A stretch of 64,000 bases of DNA, from positions 449,783 through 513,782 of the forward strand of contig CAVTMO010000007.1 of the NCBI GenBank assembly GCA_963735875.1, given 5' to 3'. Made by a program: the position numbers and the translations under genes. Numbering within the stretch: the stretch's first letter is position 1; every line of letters begins with the position of its first letter. Positions 805-16,964 of the stretch are shown here, one piece after another. The DNA is from an uncultured Acidobacteriota bacterium (GTDB lineage Bacteria; Acidobacteriota; Vicinamibacteria; Vicinamibacterales; UBA2999). Below the pieces are notes generated by a model. The model saw only the letters and a list, made by a program, of their open reading frames with translations, was not told where the DNA came from and did no database searches.

Positions 805-1629
805 ATGGCGCGCCACCCGGCGCCCTCGCCTTGGCCGCTGCGCCGGCCGTGGCTGGCCGCGCTCTGCGGTCTGCTGCTGGCGGGGCCGGCCGCCGCCCAG
901 CAACCCTTCGTCGTCGACGACGCCGGGATCACGCAGGTCGGAACCGTCCACATCGAGCTGAGTGATCAGGTCGACGGCCTGCGCCCGTCCGCTCGCCCGA
1001 CCCGCTGGCAGAACGTCGTCAAGGTGGCGGTGAATACCGGCGTGGCCGGCTGGCTGGAGCTGGGTGCGACCGTGCCGTTCATCAGCCTGGTCGCCGAGCG
1101 GAGCGCCTCGCCGCAGGTCGTGTCGGGGATCGGCGACACGACGGTGAGCGCCAAGGCCCGCTTCACGCGTCAGCCCGGCGCCCGCCATGCGTTCGCCGGC
1201 AGCATGACGCTGGGCATACCGAGCGGTGAACGCAGTCGAAACCTCGGATCCGGCCTCGTCGACTACGGCCTGTCGGCGATCTCGCAGCACCGGCTCGACG
1301 ACCGCTGGACGCTGCGGCTCAATGCCGGGGCGGTGCTCGCCGGCAACACGACCACCGGCCTGGTCGGCATCAAGCAGCGTGGCGCGGTGCTCACCGGGGG
1401 CAGCTCGCTCGTCGCCCAGGTCGGCGCCAGGCTGCAGATCGGCGCCGAATTCGCGATCGCGTGGTCGCAGAAGGCGACGCTGGTCGGCTCGCTGGCCACC
1501 GCGCAGATCGGCGGCAACTTCCTGCTGCGCGACGGCTGCACGCTCGACTTCGGTGTGGGCACCGGCTGGTTCGACTCCAGCCCCCGCACGAGCCTGCAGG
1601 TCGGCCTGTCGATCGACCTGTCACGCTAG
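805..1629 (+). CDS. Outer-membrane beta-barrel protein (MetA-pathway/Transp_Meta-like)
   Basis: Signal peptide (LAALCGLLLAGPAAAQQ). Alternating beta-strand pattern with GIGDTT and GSGLVDYG motifs. C-terminal strand LQVGLSIDLSR. Confidence 0.55.
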   Translation: MARHPAPSPWPLRRPWLAALCGLLLAGPAAAQQPFVVDDAGITQVGTVHIELSDQVDGLRPSARPTRWQNVVKVAVNTGVAGWLELGATVPFISLVAERSASPQVVSGIGDTTVSAKARFTRQPGARHAFAGSMTLGIPSGERSRNLGSGLVDYGLSAISQHRLDDRWTLRLNAGAVLAGNTTTGLVGIKQRGAVLTGGSSLVAQVGARLQIGAEFAIAWSQKATLVGSLATAQIGGNFLLRDGCTLDFGVGTGWFDSSPRTSLQVGLSIDLSR

Positions 1630-1637
1630 CCTGTTTG

Positions 1638-3251
1638 TCAGTCGCCGGCTTCGGCCATCGCCTGGATCCGGGCCCGCTCGGCCTTGGATCCGGCGATCGC
1701 CAGTTCCAGCGCGTCGTCCGAGAGGCTGGTGAGGTCGGCCGCGGCACTCTTGGCGTCGGCATGCTCGACCGCGCGCGAGAGCACTTCGGCGTTGGTCGCC
1801 CCCGCCTTCTTGCCGAGGAAGGGCTTCACAATCAGGTAGATGACGTCGCGCAGCGGCATGAAACGCAGGAACCGCCCCAGCAGCCGGAAGGTCTGGATGG
1901 GGAAGCGCGTGAACTTGTAGAGGATGAGCTTCCGCATCTCCTCCGAGCGGATGCGGTGGACTTCCTCGCCCGGCAGGCAGCTCGGATCGATCGAGGTGCA
2001 CTTGAAGTACTTGTACCAGTCGGCGGCGTCGTTGACGAGGCCGCGCTTGACGTACTCCTGCCACAGCGGCGTGCCGCGATAGACACACAGGCGGTTGAAG
2101 CCGAAGCTGTCGATGCGGATCTTCGACGCGAAGCGGAACGTCGCCCGCAGGTCCTCCTCGGTCTCGTCGGGAATGCCGACGACGAAGAAGCCGTGGACGA
2201 TTTCGATGCCGGCGGCCTTGGCATTGGTGACCGCCGACTCGATCTGCTCGAGCGTCTGCTCCTTCTTGAGGCGGTCGAGGATCTTCTGGCTGCCGCTCTC
2301 GATGCCGAACATGACCGTGCGGCAGCCGGATTGCGCCAGCTTGGGGAAGAGGTGCTGCGCCACCGAATCGACGCGGCCCTCGAGCCCGTATTTGATCGGA
2401 TTCCTGGCGGCGATGAGGCCGTCGCAGATCGCCTCGATGCGCTTGGGCTGGAGCAGGAAGTGGTCATCCACGAAGTAGACCGAGCCGTACCCATCCTTCC
2501 GCAGCTGCTCGAACTCGGCGATGACGTGGGCGGGAGTCCGCGCCCGCCACTTGCCCTCGTTGAAGATCGGGATGTCGCAGAACACGCAGGGCCACGGACA
2601 GCCGCGCGACGTCTGCATGGTGGTGAAACGATCCAGCGACAGCACCGCCGGGACGTCGAGCGGCATCGACTCGACGAAGTCGAGCGGCAGGCTCTCGCGG
2701 TCGGGGAAGGGCCACTGGTCGAGGTCGCGCGGCAGCGCCCGGTTCGGGTTGTTGCGGAGCGTGCCGTCCTTCTCCTGCCAGGTGACGCCGGTCACCGTGT
2801 CGGGATCGTTCAGGTGCTCGAGCAGGTCGACGATGAGCTGCTCGCCGTCGCCCCGGCACACGAAGTCGACTTCCCGGCACTGCGCCTTGACCAGTGGCGC
2901 GTTCAGCGTGGCGAACACGCCGCCGAACGCCAGCTTGACGTCGGCATCGGCGGCGCGCAGCTGCCGCGCCAGGACCTTGGCGTAGGGATAGCTGGTGGTC
3001 GACAGGAAGCTCATGCCGACCAGGTCGGGCTTTTGCCGCCGCATCTCGTCGACGATGACGGTGTTGGGCGTGTCGGGATTGGCCTGATCGAACATCGTGA
3101 CCTCGTGGCCGGCGCGCTTGAGCACCGACGAGAGGGACATGATGCCGATCGGTGGGAACCCCATGACCTGCAGGCGGCCGTTCGCGGCCCGTGCCTGTCG
3201 CGGGATGGCGTAGAACTGTGGATCGCGAACGTGGATCAGGAAGGCTCGCAC
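1638..3251 (-). CDS. B12-binding (class B) radical SAM enzyme
   Basis: N-terminal cobalamin-binding-like Rossmann segment (GFPPIGIMSLSSVLKRAGHEVTMFDQ). CxxxCxxC cluster motif SRGCPWPCVFCD. GTG start 32 nt downstream of the preceding DUF4159 gene on the same strand. Confidence 0.8.
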   Translation of the reverse strand: MRAFLIHVRDPQFYAIPRQARAANGRLQVMGFPPIGIMSLSSVLKRAGHEVTMFDQANPDTPNTVIVDEMRRQKPDLVGMSFLSTTSYPYAKVLARQLRAADADVKLAFGGVFATLNAPLVKAQCREVDFVCRGDGEQLIVDLLEHLNDPDTVTGVTWQEKDGTLRNNPNRALPRDLDQWPFPDRESLPLDFVESMPLDVPAVLSLDRFTTMQTSRGCPWPCVFCDIPIFNEGKWRARTPAHVIAEFEQLRKDGYGSVYFVDDHFLLQPKRIEAICDGLIAARNPIKYGLEGRVDSVAQHLFPKLAQSGCRTVMFGIESGSQKILDRLKKEQTLEQIESAVTNAKAAGIEIVHGFFVVGIPDETEEDLRATFRFASKIRIDSFGFNRLCVYRGTPLWQEYVKRGLVNDAADWYKYFKCTSIDPSCLPGEEVHRIRSEEMRKLILYKFTRFPIQTFRLLGRFLRFMPLRDVIYLIVKPFLGKKAGATNAEVLSRAVEHADAKSAAADLTSLSDDALELAIAGSKAERARIQAMAEAGD

Positions 3252-3283
3252 TGGCAGCGGTATTGTACAGCGCCTTGCGGCGG

Positions 3284-4123
3284 TCAGTGGCTCATCGCGT
3301 AGAGCATGATGTTCAGCGCCGTCGCGTAGCCGTTGGGCGAGTAGGTGTAGAAATACTCCGGGTCTTCGCCCTCGCGCTCCCAGGCGTCGGAGATGTCGGT
3401 GTTGTGCGTGGCCAGCACCATCAGCTCACCCTTGGCGTTGGTGATGCCGCGCAGGTGCACCTCGGCGCTGTCCTCGCCACGCTCCGACGACGTCGCCCCG
3501 CCCGATCCCCGCCAGAACTGGATCGACGGAATCTGCGGGATCGCCGACAGCGGAAACATCATCCGGTAGATGGGGTGATCGGACCCGAAGTCCTTGATCG
3601 GATACTGCGCTGGCGGCAGGACGCGGGCGATCTCGCCCTCGAAGACGTCCCAGGCCCGCGGGCCCCAGAAGTCGTCGACCCACAGGAAGCCGCCCTTCAG
3701 CAGGTAGTCGCGCAGGGCGAGCACCTCGTCGTCGCGCAGCTCCATCGTGCCGACGTCCGCCCCGAGCACGAACGGGCAGCGGTACAGCCACGGGTCGGTG
3801 AGGCGCACCACCCAGTGGTTCGGCACGCCGCTGGGCTGCTTGCTCACCCGCGTCTTGGTCAGCTCGGCGAAGCGGATCGAGAAGTTGATGTCGGCGTCGG
3901 GGTAGTCGGTGGACCAGCCCTGGCCACCGGGCTCGCGCCAGCGGCCCGAGTACATCACCCGGCAGAACGTGAAGCCGCCGTCGAAGCTGGCGTCGCTGGT
4001 CGGCAGCCGCGGCGGGACGCGGCGCATGCGCCCGTAGTAGCCGCCGCCCCACTGCGCCGAGGCGCCAGCCGCGGCCAGCAGCACCAGTGCCGTCGTGGCA
4101 GCGACGGCGCGACGGATCGTCAC
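3284..4123 (-). CDS. DUF4159 domain protein (copy 1), secreted
   Basis: Signal peptide (ALVLLAAAGASAQ). Motifs FTFCRVMY, WSTDYPDADINFSIRF, LLKGGFLWVDDFWG. The GTG start overlaps the upstream stop as GTGA. Confidence 0.75.
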   Translation of the reverse strand: MTIRRAVAATTALVLLAAAGASAQWGGGYYGRMRRVPPRLPTSDASFDGGFTFCRVMYSGRWREPGGQGWSTDYPDADINFSIRFAELTKTRVSKQPSGVPNHWVVRLTDPWLYRCPFVLGADVGTMELRDDEVLALRDYLLKGGFLWVDDFWGPRAWDVFEGEIARVLPPAQYPIKDFGSDHPIYRMMFPLSAIPQIPSIQFWRGSGGATSSERGEDSAEVHLRGITNAKGELMVLATHNTDISDAWEREGEDPEYFYTYSPNGYATALNIMLYAMSH

Positions 4124-7100
4124 CGGGGCTGCCCTCGCTGCTGCTTGGCCAGGCTCCGGTAGTACTCCTCGACCATGCTCTTGAACTCCGCCGGCACGTC
4201 GTCGCTGCCCGACAGCAGCACGTCCTTGGCCTCGCCATCGAGCTGGCGCCGCAGGCCGAACTCGAAGCGGCGCAGCCCCTCGCTCACCCCCGCCTGCAGC
4301 CGCGCCAGCTCCTGCACGTCGCGGTAGACGCGGTCGTCGTCGAGGGCCTTGAGGCGCTTCAGGATCTCGTCGAGGTTGCGGGTGTCCACGCCCTCGCCCC
4401 GCAGCGCCCGCCGCAGCGCCTCGAGGTCCTGGCTGTAGCGGCGAGCCTCGCCGCGGAACTGCCGGATGTCGTCGTTGGTGAAGTTGCCGGGCCGGGCGTT
4501 GCCCCAGCCCCCGTTGTCGTCCCAGCCGCCGAAGGTGTCGCCGTAGCCGCCGCCCCCGGCCTGACCGTCGGTATTGGCCTGGCCCGCCTGGCCGCCCTGG
4601 CCCTCCTGGCCCTGCTGTCCTGCCTGTCCCGCCTGGCCTTCCTGGCCTTGCTGACCGGCCTGACCCTGTTGGCCGGCTTGGCCCTGCTGCCCGGCTTGGC
4701 CTTGCTGCCCCTGCTGTCCCTGCTGGCCCTGTTGCCCGGCCTGGCCCTGCTGGCCGCGTTGTCCCGGCTGGCGCTGCTGTCCGTCCTGACCCTGGGCGTT
4801 GGCCTGCTGGCCCTGCCGGTCCTGCCCGGTCGCGCGCTCCTGCATGCGCCGGCCCAGCGAATCCACGCCGCGCACGAGCTCGCGCGCCCGCGCCCGCGTG
4901 TCCTCGCCGTTTTCACCGGCGGCGCCGCTCTTGCCGATCGCCGACGAGGCTTCGGCCAGCTTGCGGCGCAGATCCATCAGGTCCGATCCGATGTCGGCAT
5001 CCATCTCGGCGCCGGCGCCCGGATCGGCGTCACGCCCGACGAACTGGCGCGAGTAGCGCAGCTTTTCCTTGGTCTTGTCGTCGCGAATCCCGCTGGCGGC
5101 CTCCTGCAGCCGGCGCGACGAGTCCTTTTCGCCACGGGCCATCTCGTTGGAGAGCCGATCGAGCTGCTGCTCCAGCTGGCCCAGCTTCGAAGACAGGCCC
5201 TCGCGGCGCTGCGCGTTCAGCTGCGACTTCTGCAGCCGATCGGCGCCGGCGTTGTTCAACTGCTCGGCGTCGCTGGCCACGTCGGCGTGCTCGCGCGAGA
5301 TCTCCTCGGCCTGGCGCACGGCATCCTGCACGTCGCGCTCCGAGCGGGCCGCCTGCGCGCCCTGCAGTTGTCGCTGCGCCTGCTGCAGGCGCTCGGCGGC
5401 GGCGGAGGCCTGCCCGGCGGCACTGGGGTCGTTGCCCGCCGCGGCGCGCCGCATCGCATCGGCGGCCTGCTGCATCTGGCGCGCGGCGTTGGCCAGGTCG
5501 GGCCGGTTCTGTTCGCGCGACAGGCGCTCGAGCTGACGGGCCGCCTCCTCGGCCTGCTCGGCCAGGGCCCGTTGCTGATCGCCGCCGCCCGAGGCCGCCT
5601 GTCCGGCGGCCCGGCGGCGCTGGCGCTCGAGTTCCTGCTGCTGGCGCCGGGCCAGCTCCTTCAGCTTCTCGGCCAGCGCGTCGATCCGCTGCTCGGCCTG
5701 GTCCGACTGCGCGCGCGAGCTGGTTTCGTACTGGTTGGCCATCTTGTCCATCTCGAGCTCGAACAAGTCGGCCAGATCCTCGGCAATCGACCCTGCCTGC
5801 TGCCCGCCGCCACCGCCGCCGCTCTGGTTGCGGGTCTGCACCTGCGTCTCGTATTCCTCTTCCGCCTGCTGCAGGTACTGCAGCGCCTTCTGCTCCGGCG
5901 GGAGCGCGCCGTCGGGGCTCCGCTGCTGCAGCTTGGCCTCGGCGGCCTTCATCTCCGCCACCGCCAGCGGCAGCACCTCGGCGATCTTCTGGAAGCTGGG
6001 ATCGGGCGCCACCAGTCGCGAGTTCATGCGGCTGACCAGGCCCTCGACCTGCTCGCGCAGCCGGCCCTGCGACAGGGTCAGCACCACGGTGCTCTCGCGC
6101 AGTTTCTCGGCCGACATCGTCCGCTTCTCGCGCACGGTGTTGAAGGTGGCGGCGATGATCTGCCGCTGGGCCTCCGACAACGCGCCAACTTCGGCGCCGC
6201 CGCCCCCGCCACCGCCGCCACCACCGGCCATCGAGGTGGCCGGCTTGAAGTCCTTGCCGAACGGCCGGATGCGCAGGAAGTACATGTCGCTGGTCGCCTG
6301 CTTGCCGCCACCGCTGTCGTTGTCGGCGGCCCGCGCGTAGTAGGCCACCGCGTCCCCGGCCTCGACGCCGAGCTCCTCCATGTAGAAGGTGTGTCCGGCG
6401 GTCACCTCCTCGAGACGCCGGGCGCCGCGGTAGAGCGGGACGATCTTCTCTGCACTGCCGTTCACCGAGTAGACGAGCTCGAGGTTGCGCACGCCGAAGT
6501 CGTCGTCGGCGCGGGCCTCGACGAAGAACTCCTCCACCGGCGTGGCGTTGGTGTCGCGACCGGGCTTGGCGATCGACACGGTGGGCGCCATGTCGGTGAG
6601 CACGTCGATGACGTACTGCGGCGAGGCGGTGATCATCTTGCCGTCGGGGCCCTGCATGCCGACGCGGTAGAAGCCGTCCTTGTCGGCGACGAACCGGCCG
6701 GTCAGCTTGCCCTCGGCGCCGGCGGTGAGCGGCACCGCGGCGCTTTCGTGCAGCGTGAGCTCGCCGGCCGGCGTCGGCATGGTCGGGGTGACGGTGACGA
6801 GCACCTCGGTGCCGACCAGCACGGCGATGTCGCCGGCGTCCTCCACGACCCGGGGCTCGAGGCCGGTGTAGGCGGGGAAGTGGTACTCGAGGTCGATGCG
6901 CTGGGCGTAGGGCAGGTCGATGACTTCGAGGGTGAAGGTGTCCGACCGCACGCCGGCCGCCTCGGCCAGGAACTCGAGCTTCGCGTCGAGGTCGAAGATC
7001 ATGCCCTCGAACGTGCCGTTGTCGCCCTTGAGCAGCGGCACGCGCTCGAACGAGGTCGCGTCGCCCTTGCGGACCAGCAGCACGGCGTCGTCGGCGGTGA

Positions 7101-7767
7101 AGCCGCTCAGCGTGGCGGTGAAGGTCTGATCCGAGCCGCGCGGCACGGTGCCGCTGCCGGGCGTGACCGCGATCCGATACGGCGCCGCCGCCTCCACGCC
7201 CTGCCACGAGAACATCGCGGTGAGGCTCTGGCGCAGGTAGGCGGGCCCGAGGATGAAGACGGCCAAGGCGAGGGCCAGGGCGCCGGCGGCCATCAGCCCG
7301 TACTTCTTGAGCAGCGGCTGCTCGATCCCGCGGCCGTCGTCCACGGCCTGGCAGCGGGCGATGGCTTCCTCGACCAGCTTGCGGACGAACGCCGGCGAGT
7401 GCTCCTGCGGGTTGCCGTTGCGCTCGGCGCTCATCGCGCTCAGCAGCAGCGTGTTCAGCGACGGTTCGTGCTCTTCGAGGTACAGCGCCACCTGCTCGTC
7501 GCTCACCTGACGGAGCAGCGGGCGGCCGAACGCCCACGCCGCCAGGCCGAGGATGGCGGCGATGGTGCCGATGCGGAAGGCGAGGATGGCGGTGGGGGTG
7601 AAGCGCAGCGCCTCGAGGGCGAACCCGGCGGCGATCAGGATGACGGCGCTGGCCACCACCACCTGCAGGACGGCGCGCACCAGGAGCTTGCGCCGCCAGC
7701 GAGCGCGCACCTCGCGGATGACGCCCGCGACGTCGCCAGTGGACACGTTCGGTCGCTCGCGGAGCAT
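4120..7767 (-). CDS. Large membrane-anchored DUF4175-like protein with beta-rich, coiled-coil and collagen-like Gly-Gln-X regions
   Basis: Intact 1215-aa ORF with GAGGAGG upstream of the ATG. N-terminal TM helices (VVVASAVILIAAGFAL, IGTIAAILGLAAWAF, LMAAGALALALAVFILG). Poly-Gly runs, long E/R/Q/A-rich helical segments, and a conserved-looking tail VPAEFKSMVEEYYRSLAK. Confidence 0.7.
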   Translation of the reverse strand: MLRERPNVSTGDVAGVIREVRARWRRKLLVRAVLQVVVASAVILIAAGFALEALRFTPTAILAFRIGTIAAILGLAAWAFGRPLLRQVSDEQVALYLEEHEPSLNTLLLSAMSAERNGNPQEHSPAFVRKLVEEAIARCQAVDDGRGIEQPLLKKYGLMAAGALALALAVFILGPAYLRQSLTAMFSWQGVEAAAPYRIAVTPGSGTVPRGSDQTFTATLSGFTADDAVLLVRKGDATSFERVPLLKGDNGTFEGMIFDLDAKLEFLAEAAGVRSDTFTLEVIDLPYAQRIDLEYHFPAYTGLEPRVVEDAGDIAVLVGTEVLVTVTPTMPTPAGELTLHESAAVPLTAGAEGKLTGRFVADKDGFYRVGMQGPDGKMITASPQYVIDVLTDMAPTVSIAKPGRDTNATPVEEFFVEARADDDFGVRNLELVYSVNGSAEKIVPLYRGARRLEEVTAGHTFYMEELGVEAGDAVAYYARAADNDSGGGKQATSDMYFLRIRPFGKDFKPATSMAGGGGGGGGGGAEVGALSEAQRQIIAATFNTVREKRTMSAEKLRESTVVLTLSQGRLREQVEGLVSRMNSRLVAPDPSFQKIAEVLPLAVAEMKAAEAKLQQRSPDGALPPEQKALQYLQQAEEEYETQVQTRNQSGGGGGGQQAGSIAEDLADLFELEMDKMANQYETSSRAQSDQAEQRIDALAEKLKELARRQQQELERQRRRAAGQAASGGGDQQRALAEQAEEAARQLERLSREQNRPDLANAARQMQQAADAMRRAAAGNDPSAAGQASAAAERLQQAQRQLQGAQAARSERDVQDAVRQAEEISREHADVASDAEQLNNAGADRLQKSQLNAQRREGLSSKLGQLEQQLDRLSNEMARGEKDSSRRLQEAASGIRDDKTKEKLRYSRQFVGRDADPGAGAEMDADIGSDLMDLRRKLAEASSAIGKSGAAGENGEDTRARARELVRGVDSLGRRMQERATGQDRQGQQANAQGQDGQQRQPGQRGQQGQAGQQGQQGQQGQQGQAGQQGQAGQQGQAGQQGQEGQAGQAGQQGQEGQGGQAGQANTDGQAGGGGYGDTFGGWDDNGGWGNARPGNFTNDDIRQFRGEARRYSQDLEALRRALRGEGVDTRNLDEILKRLKALDDDRVYRDVQELARLQAGVSEGLRRFEFGLRRQLDGEAKDVLLSGSDDVPAEFKSMVEEYYRSLAKQQRGQPR
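4576..4791 (-). repeat. Coding tandem triplet repeat: 21 uninterrupted Gly-Gln-X triplets (4576-4764), plus a further interrupted stretch up to 4791
   Basis: Translation reads GQR GQQ GQA GQQ GQQ GQQ GQQ GQA GQQ GQA GQQ GQA GQQ GQE GQA GQA GQQ GQE GQG GQA GQA. The DNA is an imperfect 9-nt CTGGCCCTG-type repeat on the plus strand. Confidence 0.9.
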
Positions 7768-7810
7768 CGATCCTCCTCGTGCCGGCGCCTGCGCCGAGCT
7801 TCCGACCCGT

Positions 7811-9835
7811 CTACGCCGCCGCCTTCGACATGCGGCTGGCGACGAGCGATTCGGCGATCAACAGCAGCATACCTGCAAGGAGCAGGTACCACCACAGCCG
7901 TTGCGACTGCTCGGTCACCTCGTCGCGCGGCGGCTCGACGCCGGTGCCGGCCGCCGCCTGGGCCCCCGAGCCGCCGGTGGCGACAGCGGTCACGTCGGCG
8001 GGATCGACCCCGGCCAGATCAGACTCCGTGAGGTCGACGTTGGCCGCCACCACGGCTTCCACCGTTTGTCCCGGGCCCTCCGGCCGCACCTCGTAGAACC
8101 CGGGCACCGTCACTTCGACGGCGTCGCCGCGCGCCGGGTCGAGCGGCGCCCGGCGGCCCGAGGGCTCCACCACGACACGGGCCGCGCCGCCGTCGGGGCG
8201 CCGGTCGAGCGCCGCGACCTGGCCCACCGTCAGCGACGCCGGCCGATCCCGGAACGCCGCCAGGGTGCGGACCAGTTGGTGGACGAAGGGCAGGAAGACG
8301 GGCTTCAGCGCCAGGTCGCTCCACGCGAGATCGAATCCCGACGTCCACACCAGCATCCGCCCGGTGCCGACGGCGCGTTCGACCAGGGCCGGCTGCCCGT
8401 CGTCGTAGCGCGCCAGCACGCGGGCGTCGGGCGCGGCGGTGAGCCGGCGATAGCCGTACACCCGCACGCTCGAGAAGTCGCCGCTGCGCGGCGCCCGGAA
8501 CGGCGAGAAGATCGTATGGCCGTACTCGACGCTGCCCAGCCGGCCGACCGCGCGCGATCGATCGACCGGCTCGCCCAGCGTTCCGGGCAGCGCTGCGCCC
8601 TGCGGCCACGACGCCCGGCTGCCGGCGACCACGAGCACGCCGCCGCCGCGTTCGGCAAAGGTGGTGAGCCGCGCGATCACCGCGTCGCCCAGCGGCGCGT
8701 CGTTCACGACGACGACGTGGGCCTTGGCCAGCGCGTCGTCGGTGACCGCATCGAGGGCCGTGGCGGTGACATCGAAGCGCGGCGACTCGCCGATGGCCAG
8801 AGCGCGCCGCAGGTAGGTGTCGTCGGCAGCGCGCCCGCCCGGCCCGGCGAGCAGCACCTGCACCGGGCGCGTTTCACGCAACACGAAGTGGAAAGCGTTG
8901 TCGGCGGCCAGCGCGTCGTCGGCGACACGGACGACGCCGCGCAGCCCGGCGGGCGTCACCGTGACCGGCGCGAAGACGTGGGACGCCGACGCCTGCGGCG
9001 CCACCTCCACGTGCGCGGTCTCGACCACGCGGCCGTCGATTTCCAGGGCGAGCGCGACGCCGGAGACCGGGGCGGTGCCGCGGTTGGTCACGCCGCCGGT
9101 GACGGTGACGCGCTCCTGGCCCTCGAAGCGCCCCCGTCGCAGCGCCACTGGCGCGACGGCGAGATTGACGGTGTCGAGGTCGCCGACCGAGACCGGCGAG
9201 AACGTGGTGCCCGCCGGCAGGCGCTGGTCGTCGGTGGGCGCCCAGCCGTTCTTCTGGAAGTCGGTGATGAGCACCACCTCCCGGCGGGGCCGGGTGGACT
9301 CGGCGGCAATCGTCCCGGCCACCTTGAGCGCCGGGCCGTAGCGCGTGGCCTCGGCGCCCGGCGTCGCGGCAGCGATGGCCGCCAGGAGCCGCGCGCGATC
9401 GTCGATCGACTGCAGCACCACCTCCGACCCGGTGCCGAAGAGCACCAGGCTGGCCCGGTCGGAGGCGCCCAGTCCGTCGATCGCCTGGCGGGCCGCCGCC
9501 TGCGCCCGCGTCCAGCGATCGCCGTAGCCCATGCTGTAGGACCGGTCGAGCAGCACGATCACTTCCCGCGCCCCGCCGCCGATGGCGGCGACCGAGCCGC
9601 GCACGAACGGACGGGCAAACGCCGCCACGATCAGCGCCAGCGCCCCCAGCCGCATGGCCAGCAGAAGCCAGTGGCGGATCTTGCGCCGGCGCACCGACTC
9701 GTAGGGCACGCGGCGCACGAACATCAGCGACGGGAAGGCGATGATCTGGTTCTTCTCGCGCTGGATGAGGTGAATCAGCACCGGTACGGCCAGCGCGCCC
9801 AGGCCGAGGAGAAAGAGGGGCAGCAGGAACGCCAT
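7811..9835 (-). CDS. BatA-type protein: N-terminal double-transmembrane domain plus von Willebrand factor A domain
   Basis: N-terminus MAFLLPLFLLGLGALAVPVLIHLI is typical of the aerotolerance-regulator N-terminal domain. VWA MIDAS motif VLLDRSYSM. C-terminal TM helix LWWYLLLAGMLLLIA. Confidence 0.8.
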   Translation of the reverse strand: MAFLLPLFLLGLGALAVPVLIHLIQREKNQIIAFPSLMFVRRVPYESVRRRKIRHWLLLAMRLGALALIVAAFARPFVRGSVAAIGGGAREVIVLLDRSYSMGYGDRWTRAQAAARQAIDGLGASDRASLVLFGTGSEVVLQSIDDRARLLAAIAAATPGAEATRYGPALKVAGTIAAESTRPRREVVLITDFQKNGWAPTDDQRLPAGTTFSPVSVGDLDTVNLAVAPVALRRGRFEGQERVTVTGGVTNRGTAPVSGVALALEIDGRVVETAHVEVAPQASASHVFAPVTVTPAGLRGVVRVADDALAADNAFHFVLRETRPVQVLLAGPGGRAADDTYLRRALAIGESPRFDVTATALDAVTDDALAKAHVVVVNDAPLGDAVIARLTTFAERGGGVLVVAGSRASWPQGAALPGTLGEPVDRSRAVGRLGSVEYGHTIFSPFRAPRSGDFSSVRVYGYRRLTAAPDARVLARYDDGQPALVERAVGTGRMLVWTSGFDLAWSDLALKPVFLPFVHQLVRTLAAFRDRPASLTVGQVAALDRRPDGGAARVVVEPSGRRAPLDPARGDAVEVTVPGFYEVRPEGPGQTVEAVVAANVDLTESDLAGVDPADVTAVATGGSGAQAAAGTGVEPPRDEVTEQSQRLWWYLLLAGMLLLIAESLVASRMSKAAA

Positions 9836-9844
9836 CGGCCAGCC

Positions 9845-10752
9845 TCAGCGCATCCGCAGTGACCGCTCACGGAACGACAGGTAGTCGTAGAGCGCGAAGT
9901 CGAGCGGCCGTGAGGTGTCGAGCATGCGGTAGTCGACGCCGCGTTCCGCGGCCTTGGCGGTGAGCTCGGCGACGTGCGCCTGCACCAGCGCCCGGTACTT
10001 GTCGCGGAACGACTCGGGCACCACCGGCAGCTGCTCGCCGCTCTCCAGGTCCTCGAACGCCGACGGATCGGTGTAGGGGAACTCGAGCTCGGCCGGATCG
10101 AGCACGTGGAACACCACCACGTCGCTGCCACGGAAGCGGATCGGGGCCAGGGCCTCGAAGATCGCCTCGGGCTCGTCGTACAAGTCCGAGAGCAGCACGA
10201 CCATCCCGCGGCGGCCGAAGTGCTCGGCCAGCTTGCGCAGCGGCGACGAGAGCTGTCCCGGGCGGGCGGCCTTGGCGCGATCGAGCGTGTGCAGCACCAC
10301 GTCGAGGTGCTTGGCCGACGGCGGCACGTGATCGACGACGTCGCTGTCGAAGGTGATGAGGCCGACGCGGTCGCGCTGGCGGTGCACCAGATAGGTGAGG
10401 CACGCCGCCAGCGTCTTGGCGTAGTCGAGCTTGGTGATGCGCGGTCCGAACGCCATCGACGACGACACGTCGAGCAGCACGACGAAGTTGGAGTTGGAGT
10501 CGGCCTCGAACTCCTTCACGAAGTACTTGTCGGTGCGGGCATAGACCCGCCAGTCGACGCGCCGGATGTCGTCGCCCGGCACGTAGCCGCGGTGCTCGGC
10601 GAAGTCGACCGAGCTGCCGAAGAACGGCGATCGGTGCAGGCCGTTGATCACCCCGTCGACCACCGAGCGGGCCACGAAATCCAGGTTGCCGATGCGCGCC
10701 AGCACCGCCGGGTCGACGAACTGCGCGCCGGGAATCGCGCCGCCGAGCTGCA

Positions 10753-10753
<1 letters not shown>
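9845..10753 (-). CDS. DUF58 family protein (VWA-like, MoxR partner)
   Basis: Motifs HRSPFFGSSVDFAEHRGYVPGDDIRRVDWRVYARTDKYFVKEFE and VVLLDVSSSM. The ATG at 10753-10751 overlaps the MoxR stop (TGATG). The listed 656-aa ORF is an artefactual upstream extension. Confidence 0.85.
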
Positions 10754-11787
<1,034 letters not shown>

Positions 11788-11819
11788 GAATCCTCCCTGC
11801 CGCCGTTTGTTCCATCGCC

Positions 11820-11870
11820 GTAGGGCGGCTCTTCAGAGCCGCCTGAGACCGAGCTGAAGCTCTGCCCTAC
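11820..11870. repeat. REP/BIME-like inverted pair of hairpin repeats between DUF4159-2 and moxR
   Basis: GTAGGGCGGCTCTTCAGAGCCGCC (11820-11843) and the inverted copy GAGCTGAAGCTCTGCCCTAC (11851-11870). Followed by the G/C-only self-complementary tract CCCGGGCCCCCGGGCCCGGGCCCC at 11874-11897. Confidence 0.85.
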
Positions 11871-11900
11871 GTACCCGGGCCCCCGGGCCCGGGCCCCGAT

Positions 11901-12719
11901 CTAGTGCGTCATACCGTACACGATGTAGTTCACGCCGAACTTGTAGGCCTCGTTCGACAGGTCGATCGGCACCCAGCCGGTGTCCGAGAACTCCCAGTAC
12001 TCGCCCAGGTCGTTGTCGTAGTTGGCGACCACCTGCAGCCGCTTGTCCGGGTCGTTGTCCTCGAAGATGCCATGGAAGGTCGGCGTCAGCCCGCCGTAGG
12101 GCGAGACGAAGCGCGACGGGTCGATCTCGAAGAAGGCGTGGAACACCGGATGGGAGCCGTCGAGCGGCACCAGCCGCTGGGTCGGCAGCACCTTGCGGAG
12201 CTGCGCCTCGAAGTTGTACCAGTGCTCCTGGCGGAAGTCGTCGAAGATGATGAAGCCGCCCTTGGCCAGGTAGGTGCGCAGGCCCTCGGCCTCCTGGTCG
12301 TTCAGCGTCCAGTAGCCCGGCTCCGACATGTAGGCCACCGGGTAGCGGTGGAGCTCGGGGTCGTCGAGCGTGAAGATGTTGCTGTCGTCGAGGTGCGGAC
12401 GCAGCAGCGTGATCTCGCTCAGGATCTTCATCAGGTGGCGATCGGCGCGCGGGTAGTCGTGCGCCCACGGCGGCTCGCGCCTGAAACCGCCGAACCCGCC
12501 CCGGCCGCCGGCCAGGTGATAGCGCAGCCGCACGAACGCGAAGCGCCCGTCGTACTCGACCTGCACGCCTTCCAGATCCACCGGTGCCGCCCGCCGCCGT
12601 TCCCGTTCACCGGCGAAGGGGCCGCGCTGGGCGGCCAGCGCCACGGCCCCGAGCGTGATCATGGCGACGGCGGCCGTGACCAGCGCCCGCCGCCCGCGGT
12701 CACGAGAGGCCGACGGCAC
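11901..12719 (-). CDS. DUF4159 domain protein (copy 2)
   Basis: Signal anchor RRALVTAAVAMITLGAVALAAQ. Motifs FAFVRLRY, WAHDYPRADRHLMKIL, LAKGGFIIFDDFR. Overlaps the 3' end of the upstream gene by 20 nt; the alternative ATG at 12662 would remove the overlap. Confidence 0.75.
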   Translation of the reverse strand: MPSASRDRGRRALVTAAVAMITLGAVALAAQRGPFAGERERRRAAPVDLEGVQVEYDGRFAFVRLRYHLAGGRGGFGGFRREPPWAHDYPRADRHLMKILSEITLLRPHLDDSNIFTLDDPELHRYPVAYMSEPGYWTLNDQEAEGLRTYLAKGGFIIFDDFRQEHWYNFEAQLRKVLPTQRLVPLDGSHPVFHAFFEIDPSRFVSPYGGLTPTFHGIFEDNDPDKRLQVVANYDNDLGEYWEFSDTGWVPIDLSNEAYKFGVNYIVYGMTH

Positions 12720-14985
12720 GCCGATACCCCCATTCCGCGCTGACCAACGCCAGCAGGAGCACCAGCATCAGCGGCGCGTTCCACAGCTCGCGTTCCTCCA
12801 CCGCGGTGATCCCGCGGCCGGTGTACTTCACGTCCTCGAGGAGTGCGCTGGCGGTGGCGGGAGTGTAGGCCTTGCCGCCGGTGTCCTCGGCGATGCGGCG
12901 CAGCGCGGCCATCTGCAGCGTGGTCTCGGCGAACTCGGCGTCGCCGGGCCCGGCGTTGACGTGCAGGGTGGAGCTTCCGAGCGAGGTCCCGCCGCGCATC
13001 GCTTCCACCCGGGCCTCGTACCAGCCGGCGGCGCTGGTCGTGAGGGTGCCCGAGTAGGCGCCGTCGCGCTGTCCGTTCCAGGTCAGCGGCACCGTCGCGG
13101 TGGCGCCGTCGGGCCCAGACACCGTGGCGGTGACCTGCGCGTCGTTGATGGCGACAAACGACGGGTCGGCGACCTCGACGGTGAGGGTGACCGGCTCGCC
13201 GGGCTCCACGCGATCGACCGACGCCGAGGCGTCCACCGGATCGGGCACGCCGTCGACCAGCCAGCGCAGCAGCTGGCGGGTGAACGTCTCGTGGGTCTGG
13301 TCCTCGACGCTGATCGACGCGTGCATCTGCCACAGCCAGGAGTCCTGCGGCGTGAAGGCCGCCGACTTGCCCCGGCCGAAGCGCTGGAAGGCGAGCACCG
13401 GGCGGTCGCGGCGGGCGTCGTCGGCCGCACTGAGCAGCGTCGTCGCGCCCGACTTCACGGCGCCGACGCCGTTCACCGTGGTGAGCTCGGGCAGCTCGGC
13501 CCAGCGCGCCGCCGAGGCTTGATCGGTGGCGGCAATCTGCGACACCGCGTGGCCCGACCCGGCGCGCGTCGGGCGGACGGTCAGCCGGGTGACCACCGGC
13601 TCGGCCGGCGGCGTCATCCGCTCGAGCTGCACCGGCAGCGTGTCGCCGAGCGCGGTGCCGGCGTAGCCGCCCTCGCTGAACGAGCGCGGGCCGCCCAGCA
13701 TCAGCAGCCCGCCGCCGCGCTTGTCGACGAACTCGCTCAGCATCGCCAGCTGGTCGCCGGTGAAAGCGGCGGCCTCGATCGAGCCCAGCACCAGGCCGCG
13801 GTACTGGAAGAGCTCGTCGCGCGTCTTCGGGAAGCCGCCGACCAGCTCCTCTGGGTCGTCGACCTCGAGGCGCAGGTACTTGTTGTCGGCGGTGCGCTGC
13901 AGCACCACCAGCTGGAGCTGTTTGTCGTCGGTGAGCGCGCGCCGCAGGAACTTCATCTCGAAGCGCGGCTCGCCCTCGAAGTAGAGGATTTTCTCGCGGC
14001 GATCGCGCACGTCGACCAGCACGTCGCGGGTGTTGTTCTCCGGCAGCAGCTCGCCCGGCTGCGCCGGCACCCGGAAGCTGAAGACGCGCGGTCCGGGGTC
14101 GGAGGCCGTGAAGCGGACCCGCACCGTGGCCGGCTGGCCGTCGGGCGCCACCGTGAAGGCCTGGCTGCCGACGATGGCGCCGCTGTCGAGGACGTCGAGC
14201 GTCAGCGACTGTCCGGCGTAGCCGTGCCCGGTCACCACCGCGTCGAGCAGGAGCGTGGTGCCGGCGAGCACGGTCCGCGGCGCGGTGACGCGGCCCACCT
14301 GGATGTCCCGCTCGGCCGTTTCGCTGCCGACGCCGATGGCGAAGACCGGCACCCCCGAGGCCTTCAGCGCCAGCAGCGACGGCTCGAGCGCGCTGCCGCT
14401 GGTGTCGGCGCCGTCGCTGACCACGACCAGGCCGGCCAGTGGCACCCCGGCCAGCTGCTGCCGGGCCTGGTCGAGGGCCGAGACGAGCCGGGTGCTGGTG
14501 CCCGCAAAGTTGAGGTCTTCTCCGGTGGGCGCGGCGCCCAGACCGTTGGCGAAGCGCAGGGTGCGCACCGTGAAGCGTTCGCCGAGCGCCTGGCGCAGGC
14601 CGCGATCGGCGGCGCCGAACTCCTCCTGCACGTAGCTGCTTCGCGGCTGGCCGTTCAGGTCGGCAATCCGCATGCTCCGCGAGTCGTCGAGCAGGATGCC
14701 GATGACGTTCTGATGCGGCACCGCCGCCCGCAGCACCAGCATCGGCCGGAACAGACAGACCAGCAGGAGTCCGACCAGCGCCGCGCGCAGGGCGGTGAGG
14801 ACGACGCGGTCGCGGGCGGTGAGGCGCCGCGGCGCCCGCTGATAGGCGACGGTCGCCACCGCCACCGCGCCCAGGCCGGCCAGAACGGCGAACCACATGC
14901 CCGGCGGCGCAGCGAAGCGCAGCTCCCCCTGGTCGAAGACGACCCAGCGGACGCCGAGAAGGAGTTGCGACAACCAGTCGAGCAC
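12700..14985 (-). CDS. Membrane-anchored VWA domain protein with GATase1-like (DUF1355-type) domain and C-terminal TM helix
   Basis: VWA MIDAS ILLDDSRSM and VVVSDGADT. GATase-like segment GGGLLMLGGPRSF. C-terminal TM LMLVLLLALVSAEWGY. Start assigned to GTG 14985 (VLDWLSQLLLG...). ATG 14898 or ATG 15183 are alternatives; 15183 would leave only 5 bp before the divergent gene start at 15189. Confidence 0.65.
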   Translation of the reverse strand: MLDWLSQLLLGVRWVVFDQGELRFAAPPGMWFAVLAGLGAVAVATVAYQRAPRRLTARDRVVLTALRAALVGLLLVCLFRPMLVLRAAVPHQNVIGILLDDSRSMRIADLNGQPRSSYVQEEFGAADRGLRQALGERFTVRTLRFANGLGAAPTGEDLNFAGTSTRLVSALDQARQQLAGVPLAGLVVVSDGADTSGSALEPSLLALKASGVPVFAIGVGSETAERDIQVGRVTAPRTVLAGTTLLLDAVVTGHGYAGQSLTLDVLDSGAIVGSQAFTVAPDGQPATVRVRFTASDPGPRVFSFRVPAQPGELLPENNTRDVLVDVRDRREKILYFEGEPRFEMKFLRRALTDDKQLQLVVLQRTADNKYLRLEVDDPEELVGGFPKTRDELFQYRGLVLGSIEAAAFTGDQLAMLSEFVDKRGGGLLMLGGPRSFSEGGYAGTALGDTLPVQLERMTPPAEPVVTRLTVRPTRAGSGHAVSQIAATDQASAARWAELPELTTVNGVGAVKSGATTLLSAADDARRDRPVLAFQRFGRGKSAAFTPQDSWLWQMHASISVEDQTHETFTRQLLRWLVDGVPDPVDASASVDRVEPGEPVTLTVEVADPSFVAINDAQVTATVSGPDGATATVPLTWNGQRDGAYSGTLTTSAAGWYEARVEAMRGGTSLGSSTLHVNAGPGDAEFAETTLQMAALRRIAEDTGGKAYTPATASALLEDVKYTGRGITAVEERELWNAPLMLVLLLALVSAEWGYRRAVGLS

Positions 14986-15188
14986 GGCACGCACCGCGCG
15001 GCGTGGACCTTCGCAAGCCCACCCGGTGTTGGCGATTCTATGTCGGTTCGACGACCCGGCGGGCGTGGCGGCCGGGCGCCATGGGATTGGACCCGGCGGA
15101 TTCCCGCCGCCTGTCCCCGGGAACGGTGGCCAGACCTCCGGCCCCGCGCTGCTATTCTTCCCAGCGTCGGACCCGGAGGCCACCCATC

Positions 15189-16958
15189 ATGCGAACGTCC
15201 GTGCTCTGTCTCGCCGTCCTCGCCACTGCCGCCGGGCTGGCGTCCTGGCCCGGCGCCGTCCAGCCGCGCGCCCAGGCGCCGGCCGACCTGGTCCTCCTCA
15301 ACGGGACGGTCATCACGGTGAACCCGTCGGATGCCATCGCCCAAGCGGTGGCCATCACCGGCGGACGCATCGCCGCCGTCGGGACGACCGCCGACCTCAA
15401 GGCGCGGGTGGGGCCGGCCACGCAGGTGATCGACCTGGGCGGCCGCGCCGTCACTCCGGGGCTCATCGACACCCATATCCACTTCACCGAGGTCGACCAG
15501 CTGTTCAGCATCGACCTGAGCGACCCGGCCATCAAGGCGATGAACGACGTGGTATCGCGGGTGGCCGCACAGGTGGCGAAGACCAAGCCCGGGGAATGGG
15601 TGCTCGGCGATGGCTGGGACGAGGGCAAGCTGGCCGAGCGGCGGCACATCCTCGCCGCCGACCTCGACGCCGTGTCGCCGAACAATCCGGTGTGGCTGGG
15701 CAACACCACCGGGCACTACGGCGTCGGCAACACCTACGCGTTGAAGATCGCCGAGATCCGGAAGGGCACGCCCGACCCGCCGGCGGGCACCATCGTCCAC
15801 GACGCGAAGGGCGAGCCCAACGGCGTGGTGCTCGAGAGCGCCCAGCAGCTCATCACCCGCCACGCCCCGCCGTTCACCCGCGAGCAGCAGAAGGCCGGGC
15901 TGGTGAAGATGATCCAGGACTTCAGCTCTGAGGGGATGACCGGCGCCAAGGATCCCGGGATCGGCGAGCTGAAGTGGACGCTCTACAACGAGCTGCTGAA
16001 GGAAGGGAAGCTCGACGTCCGAATCTTCGCGTTGTGGGCCGGGCCGCGCCGGCTCGACCAGGCCGCCGCCGTCCAGGCGCGCGTCAACGCCAACCCGCGG
16101 CCCCCGCAATCGCTGGGCGACGGCCGGCTCTTCTCCGGCGGCGTGAAGATGTACATGGACGGCAGCGGCGGCGCCCGCACCGCGTGGATGCACGAGGACT
16201 GGAACAAGAACCTGAAGGACGTCGACAAGGGCAACCCCGGCTACCCCGCGACGCCGCCCGACGAGTACCGCAAGATGGCCACCGACTTCCACAATGCCGG
16301 CGTGCACGTGAGCACGCATGCGATCGGCGATCGGGCCATCGACTGGGTGGTGGACACCTACGCGCAGGCGCTCAAGGCCAAGCCCGTCAAGGGCCTGCGC
16401 CACGGCCTCATCCACGCCAACACGCCCACCGACCGCGCCATCGACGAGATGGCCCGGATGCAGCGCGACTACGACGCCGCCTATCCCGAAGCCTCCGCCG
16501 GCTTCATGTGGTGGATCGGCGACAACTACGCCGGCAACTTCGGCCCGGTGCGCAACCTGCGGATGAAGCCGCTGGCCACGTGGCAGAAGAAGGGCGTGCG
16601 CTGGAGCGGCGGTTCGGACTTCTCGGTGACGCCGTATGCCGCCCGCTACGGCCTGTGGGCGTCGGTGGCCCGCGAGACGCTGAACGGCACCTACGGCAAG
16701 ACGCCGTTCGGCACGGCCGAAGCGGTGGACATCCGCACCGCGCTGAAGTCCTACACCATCTGGGCGGCGCATCAGATGTTCCTCGACAATCGGATCGGCT
16801 CGGTCGAGGTCGGCAAGGACGCCGACCTCGCCGTCTGGGACCGGAACCCGTACACGGTGCCGACGGCCGAGTTGCGCGAGATGAAGGCCGAGCTCACCCT
16901 GCTGGCCGGACGCGTGGTCCATCGCGGCGCCGCGTTCCCGGTTCGGCCAGGACGGTAG
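15189..16958 (+). CDS. Secreted amidohydrolase (Amidohydro_3-type metal-dependent hydrolase)
   Basis: GGAGG lies 10 nt upstream of the ATG at 15189. Signal peptide MRTSVLCLAVLATAAGLA. Metal motif GLIDTHIHF. GGSDFSVTP near the C-terminus. Confidence 0.8.
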   Translation: MRTSVLCLAVLATAAGLASWPGAVQPRAQAPADLVLLNGTVITVNPSDAIAQAVAITGGRIAAVGTTADLKARVGPATQVIDLGGRAVTPGLIDTHIHFTEVDQLFSIDLSDPAIKAMNDVVSRVAAQVAKTKPGEWVLGDGWDEGKLAERRHILAADLDAVSPNNPVWLGNTTGHYGVGNTYALKIAEIRKGTPDPPAGTIVHDAKGEPNGVVLESAQQLITRHAPPFTREQQKAGLVKMIQDFSSEGMTGAKDPGIGELKWTLYNELLKEGKLDVRIFALWAGPRRLDQAAAVQARVNANPRPPQSLGDGRLFSGGVKMYMDGSGGARTAWMHEDWNKNLKDVDKGNPGYPATPPDEYRKMATDFHNAGVHVSTHAIGDRAIDWVVDTYAQALKAKPVKGLRHGLIHANTPTDRAIDEMARMQRDYDAAYPEASAGFMWWIGDNYAGNFGPVRNLRMKPLATWQKKGVRWSGGSDFSVTPYAARYGLWASVARETLNGTYGKTPFGTAEAVDIRTALKSYTIWAAHQMFLDNRIGSVEVGKDADLAVWDRNPYTVPTAELREMKAELTLLAGRVVHRGAAFPVRPGR

Positions 16959-16964
16959 GGCAGG

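Follow-up and report, generated by a model that had tools for sequence, protein, structure and literature searches.

A probable Bat/Cmd-class envelope gene cluster with DUF4159 and DUF4175-family proteins in Acidobacteriota and Gemmatimonadota

A 64,000-nucleotide stretch of DNA from an uncultured Acidobacteriota bacterium (Vicinamibacterales, UBA2999; GenBank assembly GCA_963735875.1, contig CAVTMO010000007.1, positions 449,783 to 513,782, forward strand; hereafter the window) carries a cluster of seven minus-strand genes at window positions 3284 to 14985. In the direction of transcription, these genes (g1 to g7) encode a VWA/GATase1-like membrane protein, a DUF4159 protein, a MoxR AAA+ ATPase, a DUF58 protein, a BatA-VWA protein, a DUF4175-family giant protein, and a second DUF4159 protein. 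We read g1 to g7 as one conserved envelope system of the Bat/Cmd class (probability about 0.6), excluding the radical SAM gene g8 that follows. Judged from protein families and gene order, the MRP-type MoxR/DUF58/BatA-VWA operons, a known class with an unsolved mechanism, are elaborated here into a form specific to Acidobacteriota and Gemmatimonadota. An earlier note on this DNA had called the cluster, with g8 as its eighth gene, an undescribed system; this was overstated, because the backbone of MoxR, DUF58, BatA/VWA, and DUF4175 falls within that class.

Conservation and gene map

The eight window proteins were searched with tblastn against 84 related loci, taken from among the matches listed in neighborhood look-ups of g2 relatives and in a scan of GTDB representative genomes. 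These loci come from Vicinamibacteria, other Acidobacteriota, and Gemmatimonadota, including Gemmatimonas phototrophica (the scan matches are closer relatives), and denominators are the loci with enough flanking sequence. All 60 loci with enough upstream flank had g1, on the same strand. Downstream, g3 and g4 were present in all 59 loci with enough flank, g5 in 58, and g6 in 56, and the order g1 to g6 was colinear in 45 of the 48 loci having both flanks. Of 42 fully flanked loci, 35 had a second DUF4159 gene inside the cluster, after g6 in 17 (as in the window), upstream of g1 in 14, in tandem after g2 in 3, and elsewhere in 1. That this gene stays in the cluster while changing its place is better explained by functional linkage than by inherited synteny. 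Co-conservation, which the earlier note had named as a check on its cluster, was thus examined for Acidobacteriota and Gemmatimonadota, and the core of g1 to g7 is kept together, that is, seven of the eight genes.

The gene that falls outside is g8 (1638 to 3251, minus strand; 537 amino acids, B12-binding radical SAM), by which the cluster had been said to be extended. It lies on the same strand, just 32 nucleotides past g7, and no terminator-like site was found between them, as would suit an eight-gene system in which g8 modifies a cluster product or a cofactor or lipid needed by the cluster. Against this, tblastn found a g8 homologue within 10 kb or in the fetched flanks of 0 of the 84 related loci, including the closest relatives at 72 to 91% identity. 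The slot after g7 is taken by unrelated genes, encoding a PALP-CBS (cystathionine-synthase-like) protein in locus L001 and MoaA in locus L004. On these two grounds g8 is a neighbor in this genome only; it was rejected as a cluster member, and we hold the eight-gene reading to be very improbable. Its domains and motifs place g8 among the class B (B12-binding) radical SAM enzymes (Pfam Radical_SAM, 2.9e-24; B12-binding, 5.9e-20), with the motif CPWPCVFC at residues 218 to 225 providing the CxxxCxxC core. Its best NCBIfam models, BchE, HpnJ, and ApyD, scored 144 to 150 bits against cut-offs of 481 to 750 (BchE, 150 against 481), so no equivalog was reached. g8 also bears a C-terminal extension of roughly 90 amino acids and weakly matches the PADLOC candidate family PDC-M51A (5e-8).

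Genes were called from an open reading frame listing, a frame test on third-position G+C content (GC3), and the translations, as the window is about 70% G+C and shadow frames abound in raw listings. The listing, the GC3 test, and orthologue lengths confirmed the eight minus-strand genes earlier placed at 1638 to 14985. In L001, the orthologues of g1 to g7 measure 760, 271, 345, 302, 675, 1207, and 277 amino acids, in agreement with the window genes, and the 760-residue orthologue is consistent with the g1 start chosen before, a GTG at 14985. The junctions already described are likewise borne out by the sequence (TGATG between g3 and g4, GTGA between g6 and g7, 9 nucleotides between g4 and g5, and 32 nucleotides between g7 and g8). 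To these we add a 20-nucleotide overlap of g1 with g2, a 43-nucleotide spacing between g5 and g6 with a GAGGAGG ribosome-binding site (a strong Shine-Dalgarno sequence), and a gap of 113 nucleotides between g2 and g3 (11788 to 11900, minus strand), which is the sole sizeable gap within the cluster. This gap holds the GC-rich palindromes GGGCCCGGGCCCGGGGGCCCGGG and GGCGGCTCTGAAGAGCCGCC and may serve as an internal promoter or a site of processing. No attenuator or other structured RNA was detected in it: shuffled versions reach a comparable fold energy (z = −0.87), and Rfam gave no match.

The cluster promoter region is presumed to be the 203-nucleotide divergent intergenic region (14986 to 15188) that separates g1 from an amidohydrolase gene on the plus strand (ATG at 15189). 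A scan with the sigma-70 consensus, which says little for Acidobacteriota, gave 0 promoter-like sites, and a terminator scan gave 1 terminator-like site, below chance expectation. The amidohydrolase gene (15189 to 16958, plus strand) encodes an Amidohydro_3 protein with a signal peptide; it is also the divergent neighbor of the cluster in L001 and L002, an arrangement that remoter relatives lack. On the downstream side, a convergent gene (805 to 1629, plus strand) encodes a Phenol_MetA_deg-type outer-membrane channel-like protein with a signal peptide.

The cluster also occurs in a cultured organism, on the 1.1-Mb plasmid 1 of Gemmatirosa kalamazoonensis KBS708 (L087; NZ_CP007129.1, 731724 to 756503), where its genes encode g1, a C13-like protein, a TPR protein, DUF4159, MoxR, DUF58, BatA, and DUF4175. 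A tblastn search of a plasmid collection with g2 and g6 returned Gemmatirosa only, plus one Corynebacterium DUF4159 protein; NZ_CP007129.1 has no annotation in PLSDB. Two further kinds of locus were seen. In L003, a long-read metagenome contig, the cluster at 6700 to 17400 is broken, with a truncated DUF58 gene, an opposite-strand DUF4159 fragment, inserted amidase genes, and no BatA or DUF4175 match, which reflects either real decay or rearrangement or an assembly or frameshift error. L017 and L053 carry a typical cluster and are labeled "uncultured Acidimicrobiia" (Actinomycetota); their proteins are 56 to 83% identical to those of Vicinamibacterales, and mis-binning or mislabeling is more likely than a real actinobacterial occurrence.

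Predicted products of the cluster

Profile searches with Pfam and NCBIfam hidden Markov models upheld every family label that the earlier note had given to g1 to g8, DUF4175 being weak and partial. The firmest assignments are those of the ATPase and its neighbor. g3 (10753 to 11787; 344 amino acids; minus strand, as for all genes below) matched AAA_3 (1.2e-62; 210 bits, cut-off 27) and AAA_lid_2 (1.7e-14) and has a Walker A motif (GVPGLAKT, residues 61 to 68), a Walker B motif (ILLADE), and a sensor-1 motif (ATQNP, residues 167 to 171). These features show g3 to be a cytoplasmic MRP-type MoxR AAA+ ATPase, catalytically competent as judged from its motifs; its NCBIfam scores were far under the equivalog cut-offs for RavA, GvpN, and BchD. 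g4 (9845 to 10753; 302 amino acids) matched DUF58 (6.3e-47) and VWA_2 (6.2e-10), has no predicted transmembrane segment, and carries a MIDAS motif (for metal ion-dependent adhesion site), DVSSS, at residues 95 to 99, features that mark it as a cytoplasmic adaptor of VWA fold whose MIDAS is intact. The g3 stop and the g4 start overlap through TGATG (−1 nucleotide), and the pair was present in 59 of 59 loci. g3, g4, g5, and g6 are consecutive on one strand, with junctions of −1, 9, and 43 nucleotides.

A MoxR ATPase beside a VWA protein could also belong to a conflict or defense system, either of the ternary MoxR-vWA-beta-propeller type or another anti-phage kind, and g3 does match the bpMoxR profile weakly (2.6e-7; 30.3 bits against a cut-off of 27). 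The same protein matches AAA_3 at 1.2e-62, though, and no beta-propeller or effector domain was found. Nor does the locus resemble a variable island, being stable, single-copy, and syntenic in two phyla. We give this alternative almost no credence; it was rejected on the marginal bpMoxR score and on the lack of any PADLOC match for g1 to g7.

Two membrane proteins, g5 (7811 to 9835; 674 amino acids) and g1 (12700 to 14985; 761 amino acids), add further VWA domains. g5 matched BatA (5.4e-18) and VWA_2 (6.3e-15) in Pfam and TIGR02226 (1.6e-20) in NCBIfam, and consists of a double-transmembrane N-terminal domain (residues 1 to 80), a VWA domain with the MIDAS motif DRSYS at residues 97 to 101 (DRSYS...T...D), and a C-terminal transmembrane helix (647 to 665), with weak signals for Ig/CARDB-like, DUF4350, and GATase1_like regions. 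g1 matched GATase1_like (9.7e-8) and, weakly, VWA. It has transmembrane helices at residues 29 to 47 and 61 to 79 (N-terminal) and 734 to 752 (C-terminal), a VWA domain with the complete MIDAS motif DDSRS (residues 100 to 104; window 14674 to 14688), a GATase1_like domain at residues 408 to 576, and an immunoglobulin (Ig)/MG2-like domain at 588 to 676. The two are thus shown by their predicted layout to be architectural twins, each with two N-terminal helices, a MIDAS VWA domain, Ig-like and GATase1-like regions, and a C-terminal helix. Descent as sequence paralogues was tried and rejected: BLASTP was not significant (E 0.025), and only architecture is held in common. Neither g1 nor g5 matched any PDB entry in sequence searches. 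The cluster had been credited with three VWA-type proteins, and DxSxS MIDAS motifs are indeed found in g1, g4, and g5 (from residues 100, 95, and 97).

The large domains of g1 and g5 are predicted to be periplasmic, because a strongly basic loop joins transmembrane helices 1 and 2; this agrees with the topology of the BatA homologue BB0173, whose VWA domain was shown by experiment to be periplasmic (PMC5700661). The idea that the GATase1-like or DUF4159 domains act catalytically as amidotransferases was rejected, as no conserved Cys and no Cys-His-Glu triad were found. The single Cys of g1 lies within transmembrane helix 2, and g5 and g2 lack Cys altogether, which argues that both kinds of domain are noncatalytic as amidotransferases.

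The DUF4159 proteins g2 (11901 to 12719; 272 amino acids) and g7 (3284 to 4123; 279 amino acids) both have N-terminal signal peptides and are 29% identical (E 3e-22), in keeping with their earlier description as secreted paralogues. g2 matched DUF4159 (PF13709) at 1.8e-46 over profile positions 9 to 202 of 202, and its signal peptide ends in AQ. g7, which starts at a GTG within the GTGA junction with g6, matched the same family at 9.1e-30 and may be a Tat (twin-arginine translocation) substrate, as predicted from the RR of its signal peptide (MTIRRAVAAT). More than 5700 relatives of g2 were found at 90% clustering, the closest (up to 90% identity) being proteins from metagenome-assembled genomes of Vicinamibacterales and other Acidobacteriota. 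An AlphaFold2 model of g2 built on 56 sequences (predicted local distance difference test [pLDDT], 84) has a three-layer alpha/beta fold. Its sole significant PDB neighbor is 4I66 (Foldseek E 2.4e-11; target-normalized TM-score, 0.73; profile E 6.4e-11), which is Hoch_4089, a DUF4159 protein of Haliangium ochraceum and a structural-genomics entry without assigned function. g2 and g7 share family and fold with Hoch_4089; in the relatives of Hoch_4089 that were looked up, a gene for a g1-like membrane protein of the GATase1_like family is likewise adjacent.

Within the g2 clade, W85, D88, P90, K153, G155, F156, D160, D161, F162, W242, and E243 are invariant, and the C-terminal H272 is nearly so. 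The invariant acidic and aromatic residues suggest a candidate binding or metal site; in contrast, those of the DDF and WE motifs are not kept in Hoch_4089. A comparison of the DUF4159 profile with the GATase1-like region of g1 (hhalign, with a single sequence and hence a weak test) gave a probability of 0.4%. Twin arginines are seen in many DUF4159 signal peptides, among them those of g7 (TIRRAVA), g2 (GRRALV), locus L004 (18485 to 19327; HRRVFLR), and the Myxococcota protein P0317 (SRRRLL). They hint that DUF4159 proteins are exported by Tat in a folded state, perhaps carrying a cofactor or metal; the motif is not kept in all g2 orthologues.

The largest product, g6 (4120 to 7767; 1215 amino acids), matched DUF4175 (PF13779; 1.3e-9, 37.1 bits against a cut-off of 27.3) and Collagen (6.6e-8), and its relatives bear the NCBI name "DUF4175 family protein." Three transmembrane helices (residues 33 to 51, 59 to 77, and 158 to 176) are followed by three Ig-like domains at about 198 to 500 and by poly-Gly linkers. 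Between helices 2 and 3 lies an invariant acidic motif, ALYLEEHEP (residues 94 to 102), which is cytoplasmic by prediction. A region rich in Ala, Gln, Arg, and Glu (524 to 985) is helical, with a patchy 3.5-residue amphipathic periodicity; next come 21 uninterrupted G-X-Y triplets (residues 1002 to 1064; window 4576 to 4764), most of them G-Q-X and with hardly any Pro, and then a C-terminal domain that is conserved (1090 to 1215). g6 had been described as a giant membrane-anchored coiled-coil protein. The membrane anchor stands, given the three helices, and the coiled coil holds in part only, the rest being Ig-like domains, patchily amphipathic helices, and the G-X-Y tract.

At the DNA level, the tract contains periodic repeats of 9, 18, 27, and 63 nucleotides (TRF). 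Its Gly positions are kept across 30 homologues, and its length varies; by its run of triplets it would be long enough for a collagen-like triple helix, in which case g6 would be a trimer. The protein is conserved over its whole length among these homologues (54 to 80% identity), including the acidic motif and the Gly residues of the tract. In a representative library of 1.84 billion proteins, the family comprised 972 clusters (50% identity) at an E value of ≤1e-30 and 5330 at ≤1e-10. A search of the g6 sequence against the PDB found collagens only, through the G-X-Y tract, and a Foldseek search with an AlphaFold2 model of residues 1 to 560 (pLDDT, 74) found only generic tandem Ig arrays (SiiE and the MG domains of complement C3), which give no clue to function.

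Separable parts and known relatives

Many relatives carry additional genes inside the cluster. A Peptidase_C13-like gene (337 to 341 amino acids) lies between g1 and g2 in 60 of the 84 loci, and in 31 of the 84, mostly from Gemmatimonadota, it is followed by an 880-amino-acid TPR plus Peptidase_MA_2 gene (examples of these accessory genes are at 8991 to 10004 in L004, at 6358 to 7383 and 7383 to 10025 in L056, and at 8634 to 11986 in L087). The C13-like protein keeps a His-Gly motif, and the Cys position of caspases and legumain is occupied by Ser (VNA[SA]SASG). No homologue of the C13-like or TPR/Peptidase_MA protein was found in the 64-kb window. In the window and in its nearest relatives, g1 directly overlaps g2 and both accessory genes are absent; by gene content, therefore, the window is predicted to hold the minimal form of the cluster.

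Part of the cluster also occurs by itself. Two Myxococcota loci from metagenome-assembled genomes resembling Haliangiales/Kofleriaceae (L085, 10001 to 15608; L086, 10001 to 14670) encode a DUF4159 protein together with a g1-like GATase1_like membrane protein. The DUF4159 proteins looked up there (P0317 and P0291, relatives of Hoch_4089) are small and stand-alone, and each gene is followed by the g1-like gene; the signal peptide of P0317 contains a Tat-like RR. The g1 of the window and the Myxococcota protein are 28% identical over their full length (E 1e-39). MoxR and DUF58 genes were not found within 10 kb of either pair, and BatA and DUF4175 genes were also not nearby. The pairs are followed by conserved genes for proteins of about 392 to 396 amino acids (plus one of 366 in L085) with no Pfam match. 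From this distribution, DUF4159 and g1 may be an older pair that later joined a MoxR-DUF58-BatA-DUF4175 backbone in Acidobacteriota and Gemmatimonadota.

The same distribution raises the alternative that two systems merely adjoin here, a periplasmic one of g1 and DUF4159 and a Cmd-like one of MoxR, DUF58, BatA, and DUF4175 (with or without DUF4159), each with a function and promoter of its own. The Myxococcota arrangement, in which DUF4159, a g1-like gene, and two further genes stand without MoxR or DUF58 in the surrounding 10 kb, favors such a division; so does the position of the only real intergenic gap (113 nucleotides), which falls exactly at the g2/moxR boundary, and so does the insertion of the C13-like and TPR/Peptidase_MA genes solely within the g1-to-g2 part. 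It has to be set against the fact that in 45 of 48 fully flanked loci from two phyla both parts adjoin and share strand and gene order, and against the second DUF4159 gene, which bridges both parts by standing at either end of the whole cluster. This near-universal adjacency and the DUF4159 genes at either end argue that the modules work together here, and we consider two separate systems unlikely.

With g1 to g7 taken as one system, its nearest genetically studied relative is the cmdA-cmdD operon of Rhizobium leguminosarum (RL3499 to RL3502), to which bab1_1573-1576 of Brucella abortus is the predicted orthologous operon. Both have MoxR, then DUF58, then large membrane proteins on one strand (here g3 to g6). 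We take the cmd membrane proteins to be of the BatA_N/DUF4159 and DUF4175 families, with DUF4159 borne by a double-transmembrane protein. Compared with that layout, DUF4159 is unfused here and occurs as two small exported proteins, g5 has no DUF4159 match and instead bears VWA, Ig, and GATase1-like domains, and there is an extra g1-type protein. g6 also departs from its presumed cmd counterpart, being about 1200 amino acids long, with Ig-like domains, a collagen-like tract, and a partial DUF4175 match in place of TIGR02302. Mutations in cmdA-D cause envelope dysfunction and morphology defects and show a genetic interaction with a periplasmic TPR protein (bioRxiv 10.1101/551135), and RL3499 and RL3500 mutants were impaired in growth on complex medium in a transposon sequencing screen (PMC5118466). 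Poor or failed growth on complex media is described for cmd mutants as well. The TPR interaction is echoed by the TPR/Peptidase_MA gene inside the Gemmatimonadota cluster.

The second point of comparison is the Bat operon, and here a classical Bat-type aerotolerance system has to be considered, protecting against oxygen or reactive oxygen species as proposed for Bacteroides, Porphyromonas, and Riemerella. The cluster shares an MRP-type MoxR, DUF58, and BatA-type VWA proteins with the Bat operons of Bacteroides fragilis, Riemerella, Francisella, Leptospira, and Borrelia (bb0170-bb0176). g5 has the two marks of BatA, an N-terminal double-transmembrane domain and a MIDAS VWA domain, and is preceded by MoxR and DUF58 as in those operons. 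The full Bat definition fails, because BatD and the TPR proteins BatC and BatE are absent: no BatD, TPR, or SH3 (BatC/BatE) match was found in g1 to g8, even at an E value of ≤5 for g1, g5, and g6, and no BatC/BatE-type TPR or SH3 gene was found in the window. The carriers, moreover, are largely aerobic soil lineages. Conversely, the two DUF4159 proteins, the DUF4175-family giant, and the GATase1-like g1 are not components of Bat operons as described (PMC5700661). Deletion of batA in R. anatipestifer lowers survival of oxidative stress (PMC11834572), but a Leptospira mutant lacking all bat genes has no oxidative-stress defect (PMC3557215), so the phenotype is inconsistent within the class. An aerotolerance function appears improbable to us.

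Other MoxR-type AAA+ ATPases, too, are encoded beside a MIDAS-bearing VWA partner, as in NorQ/NorD, CbbQ/CbbO, RavA/ViaA, CoxD/CoxE, and BchI/BchD. The clients of NorQ-NorD and similar pairs are identified enzymes, either soluble or in the membrane. The cluster encodes no enzyme client, and the partners of its ATPase are structural-looking membrane and periplasmic proteins. In the literature searched, DUF4159 is named only in the Pfam release paper, and DUF4175 only for an unrelated short protein, AdvA of Acinetobacter; the earlier statement that no mechanistic function is established for a DUF4159/DUF4175 variant accords with this.

Proposed mechanism and meaning

Several points weigh against one envelope system of the Bat/Cmd class. 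The cluster is known here from sequence and models alone. The DUF4175 match of g6 spans only profile positions 183 to 335 of 825 (153 of 825), TIGR02302 did not match g6 at an E value of ≤0.01, and the topology, oligomeric state, and periplasm-spanning length of this protein are predictions. The putative link to cmdC and cmdD draws on common Pfam families and a presumed domain make-up. A module of g1 and DUF4159 without MoxR in Myxococcota, together with the 113-nucleotide gap, means that the cluster could be two cooperating or even independent modules. Within the class itself, the Leptospira mutant without bat genes showed no phenotype (PMC3557215), and the mechanism of Bat and Cmd operons is not known (PMC5700661; PMC11834572; PMC3557215). 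The puzzle common to the class, by what route a MoxR/DUF58 pair in the cytoplasm could influence VWA domains in the periplasm, applies here as well.

If g1 to g7 do form one system, the envelope-spanning or surface complex suggested in the earlier note may be what they build, and its parts could be arranged as follows. The g3 ATPase and the cytoplasmic adaptor g4 would form a motor pair, and the VWA/GATase1-like domains of g1 and g5 would project into the periplasm. g2 and g7 would dock on these periplasmic domains; we propose this because the pairing of g1 and DUF4159 genes persists even in Myxococcota loci without MoxR. g6 would be anchored by its three helices, with the ALYLEEHEP loop facing the cytoplasm and the Ig-like, helical, collagen-like, and C-terminal parts projecting across the periplasm as an elongated, possibly trimeric stalk.

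In the MoxR/VWA pairs NorQ/NorD, CbbQ/CbbO, BchI/BchD, and RavA/ViaA, the MIDAS grips an acidic client residue while the AAA+ ring remodels the client. By analogy with these pairs, the MIDAS of the MoxR-DUF58 pair may grip an acidic cytoplasmic element, and ATP would assemble or switch the membrane scaffold through loops of g6, g1, or g5. The acidic loop of g6 would be the best candidate for the element gripped by DUF58. These mechanical steps are tentative. The physiological role would be cell-envelope homeostasis, as with cmdA-D of Rhizobium, to judge from the apparent homology of the backbone to that operon. A more specific picture, of an envelope machine in which a trimeric g6 stalk spans the periplasm beside two VWA/GATase1-like proteins with DUF4159 caps and MoxR-DUF58 pulls on the acidic loop, is speculative, and we think it unlikely to hold in full.

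At present the gain is modest. The gene map has been corrected, and the radical SAM gene no longer counts as part of the system; this is not a new mechanism. We rate the interest of the cluster as moderate, because it is conserved, abundant, and experimentally approachable, yet holds nothing that would surprise specialists or resolve the question of mechanism. MRP-type MoxR/DUF58/VWA operons are nonetheless among the most widespread bacterial clusters that have phenotypes (envelope integrity, morphology, stress resistance, and virulence) but no mechanism, and two dominant soil phyla that have been little studied carry this variant in abundance (DUF4159 relatives number more than 5700, and g6 clusters 972). 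Its parts are split into single polypeptides, with stand-alone DUF4159 proteins, a separate g1, and a domain-rich g6, which possibly makes interactions easier to map than with the fused alphaproteobacterial proteins, and the cultured carrier Gemmatirosa kalamazoonensis KBS708 makes the idea testable. If the envelope machine were real, the inner membrane and the outer envelope would be linked in an energy-coupled way of a new kind, and the Bat/Cmd class as a whole would gain a first mechanistic handle.

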